From an uncultured delta proteobacterium (lineage in GTDB: Bacteria; Desulfobacterota; Binatia; UBA9968): 64,000 nucleotides of DNA. A program made the translations under genes and the position numbers. Below the pieces are notes generated by a model that searched no databases, was not told where the DNA came from, and saw nothing but the letters and a program-made list of their open reading frames with translations. Positions 13,430 to 18,030 of the stretch are shown one piece after another (position 1 is the stretch's first letter; every line of letters starts with the position of its first letter). The stretch is taken from contig CAVSLC010000020.1 in the NCBI GenBank assembly GCA_963728565.1, positions 1-64,000 of the forward strand, read 5' to 3'.

Positions 13430-14800
13430 ATGCCCAAGGATCTACGCAGCTTTATCGCTGAACTAGACGCTACTTCACCCGAAGATGTAGCGCGGGTTAC
13501 CAAACCGGTCTCGCCGCGCTATGAGATGTCCGCGATTCTCACCCATCTGGAAAAGCGCAAACGCTTTCCACTGCTGTTTTTTAAAAATCCCAATAATGGA
13601 CAGGCGCCGGTTGTGATCAACGCTCAGGCTAGCCGCCGGCTCATGTCCATCGCCTTAGAATGTAAGCCGGAAGACTTAGCGCGCGCATTTAGCGAGCGAC
13701 AATCAAAACCTTTAGCGCCGGTGGAGATGATCAACGCGCCGGTGCACGAAATCTCCAGAACCGGCGATGAAATCGATTTAAACGAAGTGCCGCTGCTGAC
13801 CCACTATGACGTCAATGTCGCTCCTTACATCACCGCCGGTATCGTCGTGGCAGTCGATCCGGATACGGGAGTGCGCAATACGAGCTATAACCGGCTAATG
13901 ATGGCAGGCAAACGCGAGCTGAGAATCTTCATGGCCGTCGGCAGGCATCTGTGGACGCTGCACAACAAGCTTGAGCGCCGCAACCAACCGCTGCCCATCG
14001 CCATCATCATCGGTGTTCACCCTCTTTTTTCTCTGGGAGCACAAGCGCTCACGCCAGCGGATGAAGACGAGTACGCCGTCATCGGCGGCATGATGAACGA
14101 ACCGCTTCGTCTCGTACGAGCGAAAACGGTTCCGATTCTCGTGCCCGCGGATGCTGAGATGATTATAGAAGGCCAGATCATGCCGAACCTGCGTCGTCTC
14201 GAGGGACCATTTGGCGAGTTTACCGGTCATGCCGTGCCGCAGGACCAACGGCAAGTCATTGAAGTCACCGCTATTACCCACCGCGAGAATTACATTTTTC
14301 AGGACATTCATGCCGGGTATACCGAGCATAAATTGATGGGCGCGGTGCCGCGCGAAGCGGCTCTGTTGAAAGCGGTTCGCCTGACGGTTCCTACAGTCAC
14401 GAATGTGTGCATGCCGGTGTCGGGTAATTGCCGCTTTCACGCGTACATTTCGATCGCTAAACGAACGCCGGGTCAAGCCAAAAACGCCATATGCGCGGCC
14501 TTCGCCGCCGATATGCTGCTTAAACACGTGGTGGTGGTCGATGACGACATCGACGTCTTCGATGAGGAACGGGTTCTGTGGGCAATCTCCAATCGCTTTC
14601 AGGCGGATCGCGGGCTGGTGGTCATTGCAAATGCCCAGGGGAGCGAACTTGATCCCTCCGCTAGCCCCGGAGGTGTTAACGCCAAGATGGGTCTGGACGC
14701 AACCAAACCGCTTACTGGATTTCCGCCGGAACTCAGAGTGCCGGAAGAAGTTTTAGAAAAGATCAGCCTCGACGACTTCCTTCCTGATTTCGCAAAATGA
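13430..14800 (+). CDS. UbiD-family decarboxylase
   Basis: DLRSF, NTSYNR, EGPFGEFTGH, VVVDDDIDVF, KMGLDAT. Confidence 0.9.
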   Translation: MPKDLRSFIAELDATSPEDVARVTKPVSPRYEMSAILTHLEKRKRFPLLFFKNPNNGQAPVVINAQASRRLMSIALECKPEDLARAFSERQSKPLAPVEMINAPVHEISRTGDEIDLNEVPLLTHYDVNVAPYITAGIVVAVDPDTGVRNTSYNRLMMAGKRELRIFMAVGRHLWTLHNKLERRNQPLPIAIIIGVHPLFSLGAQALTPADEDEYAVIGGMMNEPLRLVRAKTVPILVPADAEMIIEGQIMPNLRRLEGPFGEFTGHAVPQDQRQVIEVTAITHRENYIFQDIHAGYTEHKLMGAVPREAALLKAVRLTVPTVTNVCMPVSGNCRFHAYISIAKRTPGQAKNAICAAFAADMLLKHVVVVDDDIDVFDEERVLWAISNRFQADRGLVVIANAQGSELDPSASPGGVNAKMGLDATKPLTGFPPELRVPEEVLEKISLDDFLPDFAK

Positions 14801-14910
14801 TGACTCCGCGATTGCTCTGTAGCTCATGAACTAACCCCGATTCGGCTGGGCTGAGATTTGATTTACCGCCTGCTATCCGTACGCCCTTCTACCCTCGCAG
14901 GCGCTGGCAT

Positions 14911-14940
14911 TTGACAGGGCGATTCATCATCGGCTAACCT
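14911..14940 (+). promoter_or_regulatory. Putative sigma70 promoter of the amidase/actin operon
   Basis: TTGACA (14911-14916), 18 nt spacer, TAACCT (14935-14940). Confidence 0.45.
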
Positions 14941-14991
14941 TGCACATCTTCGATCCTTTCTTTGAATGATCAGTCAATCTACCTCAGTCGA

Positions 14992-16002
14992 ATGGCCAGC
15001 ATAGAGCAGGACAAACTACGCCTCCTCAGGGGCGCAGTCCAAGACAACGTTGACCTGCTGCGCGGAATCCGAACCCATACCCGGAGGCGGCATCGAAAAA
15101 TCGAAGGACCCTGGATATGGAGTCCGTTTTTACTAGCCGTTCTCGCAATTCTCTGGCAGACTTCGCCGGTCATCTCGACCAGGCCCGCGGCTCCACCACA
15201 GGATCCCACAGCCGACACCAAACAGGTTCAAGCGATGGCGCAATTCGCTGCGCCGGAAGTTCAAATACCGGCACTCACGCCGCATCCGCTCGACCGCGCG
15301 GTTATTCCGCTCGAGATTAAGAGAATCGTCATCGATGCCGGTCACGGCGGCAAGCAGCCGGGGGCGATATCCGAATCCGGCATCTCCGAGAAGGACATCA
15401 CCTTGGACATTGCGCTCCGTGTGCACCGCCTCCTTGACAAGGCGCCATTCGAAGTCTTGATGACGCGGCAAGATGACCAAACCATGACGCTGGAGAAAAG
15501 AGTCGCGTTCGCTAACTCGAACCGAGCGGATCTTTTTATTTCAATCCATATCAACTGGACCGAACCGCGCGGGATTCGTCCGTTGGAAACCTACTTCGTC
15601 GGTCCCAGTGATGACCCGGCAACGAATAAATTGGCGAGCATGGAAAACCAGGAATCCGGCTATTCATTATCGGAGTATCGACGGGTGTTGGAAAAAATCT
15701 ATATCGATACGCGACGCGATGAATCTCGCAGTCTGGCCAAGAACATCCATGCAGAATTGTACCAAGCCCTCAAAGCAGTGAATCCGACGCTGGACAATCG
15801 GGGTGTTAGAACGGCGCCGTTTTTAGTTCTCGTCGGCACGCAAATGCCGGCGATACTCCTCGAAGTTTCAACCCTGTCAAACGAAGAAGAAGTAGAGTTG
15901 TTGATAGACCCCGATTACCGGGAAAAAATCGCGCTGGCGGTATCCAGAGGAATTGGCAGCTACGCGCGCAATCGTAATAGGTCAGCTGAGAAAGGTAGCT
16001 AA
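14992..16002 (+). CDS. Membrane-anchored N-acetylmuramoyl-L-alanine amidase (Amidase_3)
   Basis: IVIDAGHGG, EKDITL, LMTR, ADLFISIHIN, PAILLEV; basic N-terminus, one hydrophobic helix and Pro-rich linker; alternative start 14962. Confidence 0.88.
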   Translation: MASIEQDKLRLLRGAVQDNVDLLRGIRTHTRRRHRKIEGPWIWSPFLLAVLAILWQTSPVISTRPAAPPQDPTADTKQVQAMAQFAAPEVQIPALTPHPLDRAVIPLEIKRIVIDAGHGGKQPGAISESGISEKDITLDIALRVHRLLDKAPFEVLMTRQDDQTMTLEKRVAFANSNRADLFISIHINWTEPRGIRPLETYFVGPSDDPATNKLASMENQESGYSLSEYRRVLEKIYIDTRRDESRSLAKNIHAELYQALKAVNPTLDNRGVRTAPFLVLVGTQMPAILLEVSTLSNEEEVELLIDPDYREKIALAVSRGIGSYARNRNRSAEKGS

Positions 16003-16008
16003 ACAACA

Positions 16009-17040
16009 ATGGAAGAAACAAATGATACACTTTGTGTCGGTATCGACCTCGGCACCTCGCGGAGCTCCATTTCGGCATCCAATGGCGAGCGCCACGTAAT
16101 CGACAGTTATGTCGGTTGGCCGGTCGATATGGTCGCGCGCAAGCTGATTCAAAAACCGCTGCTTGTCGGTCGGGAAGCATTGGATAGTCGTTCGATGCTG
16201 GATCTTCGCCGCCCCATGGAGCGCGGGTTGATCAAGGATGGATCAAAAAAAGACGAAGAAGCCGTCCAGGAGATCCTGCGGCATTTGATCACGCAGACCG
16301 GCTTGAAACAGAAGAATAAGACACGGGCGAAGGTTCGCGCCGTGGTCGGCGTGCCGGCGGAGGCTTTCAGGAATAGCAAACAGCGCTTGCGCAGCGCCAT
16401 GGAGGGGGTGGCCGACAGCGTCATGTTGGTGTCAGAACCCTTCGCTGTAGCTTACGGATTGGAGGCTTTACTGCACGCCCTTATTATCGATATCGGCGCG
16501 GGAACGGCTGACTTTTGCGTGATGCAAGGGCGTTATCCGACCGAGGAAGACCAAAGAACCTTACCCAATGCCGGCGACTCGATTGACGAACAATTGCTGA
16601 AATTAGTGCGCGAGCATCATCCCGAAGCGCAAACTTCGATTCATATGATTCGTGAATGGAAGGAGAAATGGAGCTTTGTCGGTGAGGCGAAACAACCGGT
16701 TTTAGTTTCTGTTCCGGTCAAGGGGAAGGCCACCGAATTGGATATCACCGCGGAGATGCGCGCGGCCTGCGAAAGCATCTTAGCGCCCGTTTGTGAAACC
16801 ATGTTGGACCTGCTCACCAGAGTCGAGCCCGAATACCAAGCGACGGTTCGCAATAACGTTATTCTCGCCGGCGGCACTTCGCTCATCGTTGGACTGAGCC
16901 ATGCAATTGAGAACGCGTTGGCCGAGCTCGGTGGCGGCCACGCCACGGTTGTTAAGGATCCGGTTTTCGCAGGTTCGGATGGCGGCTTGGCGATCGCCCG
17001 GGATGCATCGAGCTCGGATTGGGAAAAGTTGTCACTATAG
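16009..17040 (+). CDS. MamK-like bacterial actin
   Basis: GIDLGTS phosphate-1, VSEPFAVAYG, DIGAGTAD phosphate-2, PEYQATVRNNVILAGG adenosine motif, VKDPVFAG; these match MamK-type rather than MreB-type signatures. Confidence 0.8.
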   Translation: MEETNDTLCVGIDLGTSRSSISASNGERHVIDSYVGWPVDMVARKLIQKPLLVGREALDSRSMLDLRRPMERGLIKDGSKKDEEAVQEILRHLITQTGLKQKNKTRAKVRAVVGVPAEAFRNSKQRLRSAMEGVADSVMLVSEPFAVAYGLEALLHALIIDIGAGTADFCVMQGRYPTEEDQRTLPNAGDSIDEQLLKLVREHHPEAQTSIHMIREWKEKWSFVGEAKQPVLVSVPVKGKATELDITAEMRAACESILAPVCETMLDLLTRVEPEYQATVRNNVILAGGTSLIVGLSHAIENALAELGGGHATVVKDPVFAGSDGGLAIARDASSSDWEKLSL

Positions 17041-17179: not shown

Positions 17180-17927
17180 CTAATCGCGAATTGCCAGCGC
17201 GCCACCGTCGACAGGCAGGTCGATGGCGTAGATGAACTCGGACTCATCTGAGGCAAGAAACACTACGGCTTTGGCGATATCCATCGGAACTCCGCGCCGG
17301 CCAGCCAAGTTTTTGACGAAGCGATTTTCCGGAACTTCTTCCTGACCAACAGGCGAGCCGATTCGATTCGGCGATACCGAATTTACGCGAATGCCTTCCG
17401 GCGCCAATTGCACCGCGATCGATCGGGTGAGATTAAGCACACCCGCTTTGGCGGTGGTGTAGGCCGTCGCTTCCTTACGTCCCCAATGGCCTGAGGTCGA
17501 AGCGATGTTGATGATCTTGCCTTTGCGCTTGTGATCGATCATGACCTTGGCAGCCGATCGCGTACAGTACCACACGCTCCTGAGGCACACGTTCATGACA
17601 CGGTCCCACTCTTCTTCGGTAATATCGAACAAGGTCTTGTGATCGGTCCAAGCGGCGTTGTTGACCAAGATGTCGATACGCGCCAAATTGCTTCACTACC
17701 GTCTGAACCATTTGATCTACCGAATCAGCCGATGCGACATCGCATACGACCGAGATAGCCGACCCTGGCTTGGTCGCATTGATTTCACTAGCCACACGGC
17801 TGCCTCTTCCCTGATCGAGATCGACTACCGCCACCTTGGCGCCTTCATGAGCAAAAAGCTTGGAGACGTCTTCACCGATATTGCGCCCTGCGCCGGTAAC
17901 CACCGCAACTTGATTCTGCAGTCTCAT
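17180..17927 (-). CDS. SDR-family oxidoreductase, frameshifted near 17680
   Basis: TGAGRNIG in the upstream frame; LVNNA, YTTAK and RVNSVSP in the downstream frame. Confidence 0.85.
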
Positions 17928-18030
17928 GGTTTCCTCCATAATCAATTTCTGCTGAATAACAGAACCTAGACTAAAGGTCCAGCTACGGGAGGGACTACCG
18001 ACCAAAGAAGAGCCAAGCGAGGGCATCGGG

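Follow-up and report, generated by a model that had tools for sequence, protein, structure and literature searches.

How bacteria direct their periplasmic wall hydrolases to the places where they cut is an open problem, and the known answers are periplasmic targeting domains, activators and, in one recent case, a bactofilin. The question is raised again by a pair of genes in a 64,000-nucleotide (nt) stretch of DNA, here called the window, from contig CAVSLC010000020.1 (C20) of a Binatia metagenome-assembled genome (MAG; GCA_963728565.1, our G000) of 4.53 Mb with 80.6% completeness and 5.8% contamination. In this pair, a gene for a MamK-family actin-like ATPase directly follows a gene for a peptidoglycan amidase. 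Does the actin act on the amidase, or do the two merely share a locus? On balance we favor the first answer: the two genes probably form a module in which an actin-like polymer in the cytoplasm is coupled to a peptidoglycan amidase in the periplasm. The finding goes beyond what the original prediction, made from the sequence of this window, had foreseen: the actin belongs to a widespread, monophyletic amidase-linked branch of MamK-like proteins, and a candidate interface with the amidase can be named.

The longest open reading frame (ORF) of the amidase gene spans 14962..16002 on the plus strand, with a TTG start and 346 amino acids (aa). Its homologues align only from an in-frame ATG at 14992, and the likely product is therefore 336 aa long (14992..16002). 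The stop codon (TAA, 16000-16002) is separated by 6 nt from the ATG of the actin-fold ORF at 16009, which encodes 343 aa (16009..17040, plus strand). The close spacing, claimed from the start, is plain from the ORFs and the sequence, and the Amidase_3 assignment stands at 168.2 bits against a cut-off of 27 (Pfam PF01520, residues 122-331 of the 346-aa ORF). No second Pfam domain was found in the amidase; Amidase_3 is its sole family, and there is no AMIN domain. The purine-rich sequence GAGAAAGG at 15988-15995 may be a ribosome-binding site for the actin. The features of the module are the following; those within the amidase come from an AlphaFold2 model built with 74 homologues, with a mean predicted local distance difference test (pLDDT) score of 80.4.

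14992..16002, plus strand: amidase gene, putative bitopic N-acetylmuramoyl-L-alanine amidase, 336 aa (Pfam Amidase_3; homologues start at this ATG)
14995..15060, plus strand: N-terminal cytoplasmic helix, residues 2-23, with the motif K-x2-LLR-x-AV-x-[ED]-N; predicted actin-docking peptide (AlphaFold2)
15061..15156, plus strand: Arg/Lys-rich, disordered stretch (residues 24-42) followed by a predicted hydrophobic anchor helix (residues 43-55 in the model; AlphaFold2)
15157..15321, plus strand: putative periplasmic linker, Pro/Ala-rich, low-confidence, residues 56-110 (pLDDT below 50 at residues 57-64 and 69-85; no secondary structure)
15322..15990, plus strand: Amidase_3 catalytic domain, residues 111-333, with an AmiA/B/C-type insertion at about 205-260 (pLDDT above 90 over most of the domain)
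16003..16008, plus strand: spacer between the amidase stop and the actin start, 6 nt, from the sequence itself
16009..17040, plus strand: MamK-family actin-like ATPase gene, 343 aa (NCBIfam and PDB scores; E143 and D161 invariant in 74 homologues)

The family identity of the actin was examined with curated models and solved structures. The top NCBIfam model was MamK (NF040964) at 371.9 bits, which is below the curated cut-off of 400. Scores were 213.9 bits for BeeR (NF053558; cut-off, 530) and 69.6 bits (cut-off, 293) and 56.5 bits (cut-off, 365.75) for the MreB models (NF010539, TIGR00904), and the broad Pfam family MreB_Mbl (PF06723) was passed with 79 bits against 27. The best solved relative was MamK 5jyg from Magnetospirillum (252 bits over residues 6-341 of 343), compared to 141 bits for BeeR 8r2n and 43 bits for MreB 4czf. 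It is on these hidden Markov model and PDB scores that the relation to true MamK rests. Every motif by which the original prediction had recognized a MamK-like protein rather than an MreB was found in the translation, aligned with the same motif in 5jyg: VSEPFAVAYG (141-150), DIGAGTAD (161-168), PEYQATV..N...AGG (274-289), VKDPVFAG (315-322), and W338. The nucleotide-binding motifs are conserved, and E143 and D161, which from MamK mutant work we take to be the ATP hydrolysis residues, are invariant among the 74 homologues. Only 8 residues precede the first phosphate-binding motif, and the actin has no obvious membrane-binding helix of its own. In public records, it is named "rod shape-determining protein" in Candidatus Binatia bacterium MAGs.

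Further analysis of related genomes showed that the pair is conserved as a pair. The sample was 41 genomes of the same order, including G000 (the counts take in the unpublished genomes G012 and G018, and L039, apparently the contig of G012, is one row of the alignments A3 and A4; no conclusion hangs on these two genomes). The actin was present in 17 of them: in all 7 other genomes of the genus, in 16 of 24 genomes of the family, and in none of the 16 genomes of two other families. At 17 of the 18 actin sites in these 17 genomes, the amidase is directly upstream on the same strand. A full-length, tail-bearing amidase, 48-96% identical with the N-terminus included, occurs in exactly the same 17 genomes, and the other 24 contain only a paralogue with 32-40% identity over the catalytic domain, or none (G011 and G013). 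The two genes therefore strictly co-occur, with 17 genomes having both and none having one alone (n = 41). A wider scan with one genome per species and an 8-row alignment as the query gave at least 595 relatives among 599 pattern matches, and the best 80 loci were analyzed. Of these best 80 of at least 595, all 80 have the amidase immediately in front of the actin, and the distance between the ends of the two tblastn matches ranges from -9 to 205 nt. The record labels assign 61 loci to Acidobacteriota and 7 to Binatota, and the other 12 carry another phylum label or none. When the flanks of 81 loci were clustered, the amidase and the actin each appeared at 80 and the next family at only 12. 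Since nothing else nearby is conserved, the unit consists of two genes in variable surroundings, much as the self-contained two-gene unit had been envisaged. The minimal module of the original prediction is not peculiar to this genome; the arrangement is a widespread family trait.

Two side observations belong here. The loci L025-L104, with actins 73-83% identical to that of the window, have been deposited under very different labels, among them Deltaproteobacteria, Rokubacteria, Udaeobacter, Methylomirabilota, Syntrophobacteraceae, and Acidobacteria gp5; this variety probably reflects inconsistent labeling of MAGs and not transfer. In G001:C610 (L022/L024), the actin is found in two overlapping pieces (residues 1-198 and 181-343), with a TGA within the second. 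This actin may be broken or misassembled, and the adjoining amidase is intact.

A sister clade shows the same arrangement. P0124, the nearest other representative at 52% identity to the actin, passes the MamK cut-off with 425.2 bits; P0121, which is 67% identical, misses it with 392.7 bits. In MAGs of Desulfobulbaceae, Syntrophobacteraceae, Defluviicoccus, and Hyphomicrobium, relatives of P0124 go by the name "MamK family actin-like protein" or "rod shape-determining protein." Of 80 metagenome loci around P0124-like genes, which are not independent, as some are near-copies, 73 have an amidase directly upstream, and at the 7 loci without an amidase match, the sequence begins at most 334 nt before the actin. 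The sister-clade amidases also carry a motif related to that of the N-terminal tail. Taken together, the amidase-linked actin is found at no fewer than 153 further loci in two sister clades, and synteny of amidase and actin, which the original prediction had left to be checked across genomes, holds well beyond close relatives. In a tree of 74 rows (quick IQ-TREE run with the Shimodaira-Hasegawa-like approximate likelihood ratio test [SH-aLRT]), in which P0121 and P0124 were placed in groups A and B by similarity and not by seen context, the amidase-linked actins form a single clade (SH-aLRT of 100 for A plus B, 100 for A, and 97 for B). It is separated from 32 further representatives of the family and from long fusion proteins that form their own clade; P0163 falls inside group A on a long branch. 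As for the long proteins, many among P0136-P0170 (e.g., P0138, P0140, and P0147) have 523-1232 aa and a C-terminal MamK-like domain 38-41% identical to the actin. The long N-terminal extensions of these proteins had no Pfam domain and gave no Rosetta-stone link to an amidase, and five of the fusions make up the separate clade, with a support of 100.

How could a cytoplasmic actin reach a periplasmic enzyme? The anatomy of the amidase suggests a route. The N-terminal helix is conserved across phyla among the 74 homologues (K8 in 92%, V16 in 85%, N19 in 100%, and G25 in 73%). It is followed by a hydrophobic segment; over the best 19 aa, its hydropathy has a median of 1.94 among the homologues, 65 of 74 of which score 1.6 or higher. 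The 15 aa before this segment hold a median of 6 Lys or Arg residues, compared to 1 after it, and a strict twin-arginine motif occurs in none of the 74. We read the segment and its charge bias as an uncleaved membrane anchor with the N-terminus inside the cell. The linker region behind it aligns poorly among homologues. In the catalytic domain, H118, E133, H186, and E291, presumably the zinc ligands and the catalytic Glu, are invariant in the 74 homologues. The alignment with the best solved relatives, the AmiB catalytic domain 3ne8, AmiA 8c2o, and AmiC 4bin, runs unbroken across the insertion, in which the model has helices at 209-219 and 226-236, whereas CwlV 1jwq aligns in two pieces and skips it. 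Judged by its sequence, the domain appears to be of the regulated, division-amidase type without AMIN.

The tail is also the part of the amidase for which a contact with the actin is predicted. Complex prediction with the actin and amidase residues 1-41, each with a 74-row alignment, gave a score of 0.86 in each of three runs, compared to 0.00 for the best of three controls, so that the proposed partnership of the actin with the amidase N-terminus passes its controls at the level of a model. The runs share at least 87% of their contacts, and the pLDDT of the partner is 66 or higher. Of 80 solved complexes, 58 attained the pass mark, as did 2 of 110 mismatched pairs, a calibration that is rough here as own alignments were used. 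The predicted contacts on the tail are residues 4, 7-8, 10-16, 18-20, 22-23, and 25, which include the conserved positions, and N19 is predicted to touch actin residues 138-141 and 340-341. On the actin side, residues 121-128, 138-155, 174-176, and 329-341 are involved, that is, the strand and helix of SEPF..Y and the C-terminal helix. Judged by the actin fold in general, this site would be the hydrophobic cleft that separates subdomains IA and IIA. Its core (F145, Y149, L154, and G174) is conserved family-wide, and the rim (R121, Q125, R128, L155, R175, Y176, A333, and D337) is specific to the Binatia/Acidobacteriota group.

Is the actin perhaps the MreB of this organism, or part of a magnetosome? 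A whole-genome search with MreB_Mbl found three places: a canonical mreB on C22, the actin described here, and a weak match on C5. The C22 gene scores 498.8 bits and has mreC and mreD behind it. The window therefore has no mreBCD, in agreement with the original claim on mreCD, and the actin is not the sole mreB of the genome. An MreB paralogue was considered as a reading and rejected, as the NCBIfam MreB models give at most 70 bits and mreBCD is elsewhere. For magnetosome genes, the NCBIfam models of MamI (NF040963), MamP (NF040965), and MamQ (NF040966) were searched, and the claim that the window holds no mam genes can be judged to this extent. MamI had no match in the 80.6%-complete MAG, in a search that had no positive control; the best genome-wide scores for MamP and MamQ were 27.3 bits (cut-off, 300) and 90.3 bits (cut-off, 250), respectively, which is the level of nonmagnetic control genomes. 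Thus, none of the three passed its cut-off anywhere in the genome; MamA, B, E, M, and O lay outside the search, and absence cannot be concluded from an incomplete MAG. MamP and MamQ were likewise over the cut-off in none of five carrier genomes, four of them 96-98% complete and the fifth (G041) without a completeness figure. In line with the original expectation, these searches showed no full magnetosome cluster elsewhere. The genome also has a second Amidase_3 gene on C19 (G000:C19:149568-150203, L113), inside a 466-aa open frame and longer than the module amidase. Counterparts of this gene occur in nearly all related genomes, and it is probably the housekeeping division amidase. With a separate mreBCD and a second Amidase_3 gene, the module is therefore accessory, being neither the sole actin nor the sole amidase of the cell.

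The mechanism that we propose is as follows. The amidase would span the inner membrane with a cytoplasmic N-terminus, in the order amphipathic helix 2-23, basic stretch, membrane helix, flexible linker, and zinc amidase domain with the AmiA/B/C-type insertion. A polymer of the MamK-family ATPase would bind the N-terminal helix in the cleft formed by the SEPF..Y helix, the strand next to it, and the C-terminal helix, the binding mode being that of the predicted complex. Through the anchor and the linker, the filament could then set the site, and perhaps the time, at which the amidase removes peptides from the wall, possibly to separate cells, to shape them, or to open the wall locally. Because the actin has no visible membrane-binding element of its own, the tail would also serve to hold the filament at the membrane. 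Polymerization, a role in recruiting or positioning the amidase, and the cellular purpose are what we infer here. The original prediction spoke of a MamK-type filament repurposed to position a wall hydrolase. Coupling to the amidase is supported by synteny, co-occurrence, and the complex prediction; positioning is the inferred part, and a direction such as "repurposed" is not given by the tree.

Several results weigh against this reading and have to be set beside those that carry it. The hydrophobic segment of the window amidase itself reaches only 1.51, below the usual 1.6. There is one exception to the pairing, a second actin copy in G010:C807 (L019, actin at 1501-2532), which has no amidase and has a 435-aa multi-pass ORF resembling the major facilitator superfamily (MFS) upstream; it may be a true detached copy or foreign DNA, G010 having about 5% contamination and 830 contigs. 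Within the amidase-linked clades, the conservation of the predicted interface is 0.67 versus 0.69 for the rest of the protein, a neutral outcome. The complex score is the model's own confidence, and part of the pass may reflect likeness, because an amphipathic helix in an actin-fold cleft recurs in solved structures. The tree cannot tell whether the amidase-linked clade is sister to true MamK or derived from it; it has no labeled magnetosome MamK, and PDB searches of P0130, P0161, and P0139 (262, 299, and 287 bits, respectively) identified none of them as the Magnetospirillum MamK cluster. Promoter-like sites in the whole region numbered 2, with 1.5 expected, which is chance level. For RNA, 24 runs were considered, of which 15 are recorded as RNA, and the RNA-labeled ones all have small shares of 0.10-0.16. 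Four RNA libraries from four studies (X1, X4, X6, and X7), all labeled soil metagenome, were aligned. Their contigs (84-604 nt, 90-99% identity) cover parts of both genes, none of them bridges 16003-16008, and several bins are uncovered; as RNA libraries can contain DNA, these contigs are a weak hint of expression and show neither transcription nor co-transcription.

Some of these results would fit two genes that are merely co-transcribed neighbors without any coupling, the actin then being an additional one of the MreB-like or plasmid type whose task has nothing to do with the amidase. The public name "rod shape-determining protein," the detached copy, and the neutral interface test all lean that way. 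However, mere neighbors should not stay adjacent in several phyla, at 17 of 18, 80 of 80 (the best 80 of at least 595), and 73 of 80 loci, when everything else in the flanks varies, or co-occur without a single exception in 41 genomes. The tail is conserved without another obvious purpose, the complex prediction passes its controls, and the low NCBIfam MreB scores do not suit a second MreB, so we consider this reading improbable. A reading that we rate slightly lower still takes the N-terminal region for a long export signal of the twin-arginine translocation (Tat) type and the actin-fold ATPase for a precursor chaperone or gatekeeper instead of a filament. Escherichia coli AmiA and AmiC are known to have a Tat-type export signal, and in the tail here, Arg residues are abundant right in front of the hydrophobic segment. 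Of the 74 homologues, 17 have a loose RR-x-hydrophobic-hydrophobic pattern and 14 have A-x-A close to where the segment ends, and the modest hydropathy of the window amidase agrees with a signal. Yet a strict twin-arginine motif is absent from all 74, the segments of 65 of 74 have transmembrane-level hydropathy, and the charge bias fits an uncleaved N-in anchor. The actin, moreover, is alignable over its full length with the filament-forming MamK and BeeR and has no Hsp70-type substrate-binding domain.

The main rival keeps the physical link and reverses its logic. Here the amidase would be mainly a membrane and wall anchor, or a ParR-like nucleator bound to the filament end, and the filament would position other cargo, with hydrolysis being secondary. 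An actin with 8 residues before its core and no obvious membrane helix would need an anchor, and the tail is predicted to dock in the same cleft by which ParR binds ParM at the filament end. On the other hand, the presumed zinc ligands and catalytic residue do not vary among 74 homologues and the regulatory insertion is kept, which argues that catalysis is under selection, and no third conserved gene nearby could supply a cargo or adaptor, the next family being present at 12 of 81 loci. MamK itself positions cargo (PMC11929497), which would suit such a reversal. We regard this dependence as rather unlikely, though clearly less so than the two preceding readings. By far the least credible of the alternatives is that the protein is a genuine magnetosome MamK and the organism an unrecognized magnetotactic bacterium. 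MamK is indeed the best family and the best structure match, but the score of 371.9 bits is below the cut-off of 400, MamP (27 versus 300) and MamQ (90 versus 250) stay at the level of control genomes, MamI has no match, and none of the five carriers passes MamP or MamQ. All the examined clade members but one also have the amidase as a neighbor.

Outside the module, two further features of the locus were considered.

14911..14916, plus strand: TTGACA hexamer, the -35 box of the original prediction; unverified (present in the sequence; sigma-70 scan silent)
17180..18026, minus strand: short-chain dehydrogenase gene, convergent, which closes the unit and is outside the module (read as two ORFs that overlap in different frames; the adh_short match is in the 3' part)

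The hexamer exists, but the sigma-70 promoter scan did not report it as a promoter-like site, as there is no acceptable second hexamer, and the proposed TTGACA promoter could not be upheld. X6 and X7 contigs of close relatives cover the locus from 14892 and 14902, upstream of the TTGACA at 14911; if these are RNA derived, transcription begins further upstream than this hexamer. The gene upstream of the amidase encodes a UbiD-family decarboxylase and ends at 14800, with a weak terminator-like hairpin at 14841-14855 after it. The convergent gene expected downstream is indeed there. Of its two ORFs, 17475-18026 has the N-terminal glycine-rich motif and 17180-17686 matches positions 71-234 of adh_short; the gene is apparently frameshifted, by a true frameshift, pseudogene formation, or an assembly error.

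If the coupling of polymer and amidase is true, it would give a function to many "MamK-like" and "rod shape-determining" annotations in nonmagnetic bacteria. A MamK-family ATPase appears to be hard-wired to an AmiA/B/C-type amidase via a conserved cytoplasmic peptide, in abundant and little-studied phyla of soil and sediment. This would be a new actin-partner pair with a precise, mutable interface, namely, N19, K8, and V16 of the tail and F145, Y149, and A333 of the actin. It would also suggest that magnetosome MamK is one specialization of a broader family of adaptor-binding filaments. A bolder version, which we offer tentatively and do not expect to hold in full, is that the tail acts as a ParR-like adaptor in the barbed-end cleft, that a growing or treadmilling MamK-type filament moves or spaces the wall-cutting enzyme on the other side of the membrane, and that this cytomotive machine is ancestral to a large clade of Binatia, Acidobacteriota, and Desulfobacterota-type bacteria. 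As a corollary, adaptors may dock in this cleft throughout the MamK family, and so also in magnetosome MamK.

How does the module compare with known systems? With MamK (5jyg, 5ljv, and 5ljw), the actin shares SEPF, DIGAGT, PEYQATV, and the Trp-containing C-terminus, and E143 and D161 are at the same numbering. Unlike MamK, its gene is paired with an amidase outside a mamAB-type cluster, and its score is below the family cut-off. To our knowledge, Binatia and Acidobacteriota, the labels of the carriers, are not known as magnetotactic. In MreB-RodZ and ParM-ParR, an actin-fold polymer is likewise linked to a partner through a short cytoplasmic element, which in ParR is a helix in the cleft between subdomains IA and IIA of ParM. 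The same cleft is the predicted seat of the amidase tail. RodZ has a helix-turn-helix domain and no enzyme domain, and ParR is a DNA-binding adaptor; neither is a wall hydrolase. Among amidases, the nearest are AmiA, AmiB, and AmiC (8c2o, 3ne8, and 4bin), with which the Amidase_3 fold, the insertion, and the invariant metal and catalytic positions are shared. In place of the AMIN domain of division amidases, and with no strict Tat motif, the module amidase has a putative N-in anchor and a conserved cytoplasmic helix. According to the available part of one report, the insertion is a regulatory, autoinhibitory element in AmiA/B/C (PMC10268282).

MamK relatives in nonmagnetic bacteria have already been published (PMC11929497, PMC10580974). 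BeeR (8r2n), a MamK-related actin of nonmagnetotactic bacteria, is a three-stranded tubular actin of Verrucomicrobiota with a disordered N-terminal extension of 30-50 aa and a function stated to be unknown, and the main text of that paper names no amidase partner (PMC11929497). The actin described here has 8 residues before its core, scores 213.9 bits against the BeeR cut-off of 530, and belongs to a different clade. Bbp ("big bacteria protein") is another actin placed between MamK and MreB that nonmagnetic bacteria have in addition to MreB; its gene is clustered with two others, for a hypothetical protein and for a Kelch-domain protein, and the paper contains the word "amidase" 0 times (PMC10580974). 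The present actin is similar in being an extra actin beside MreB and different in its amidase neighbor. No description of the actin-amidase pair was found in the literature searched, which held few subscription journals and no supplements.

The closest functional precedent, by analogy, is the bactofilin BacA with the bitopic M23 endopeptidase LmdC. As far as the accessible text of that study goes, their genes are adjacent in many species, and it was shown experimentally that the cytoplasmic tail of LmdC binds the BacA polymer directly and that the polymer recruits the hydrolase (PMC10945521). The locus in the window likewise has adjacent, co-conserved genes for a putative polymer and a putative bitopic wall hydrolase. 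Going by the same text, it differs in that the polymer would be an actin-fold ATPase, the enzyme is an amidase and not a DD-endopeptidase, and the tail motif, a beta-hairpin in LmdC, is here a predicted helix.

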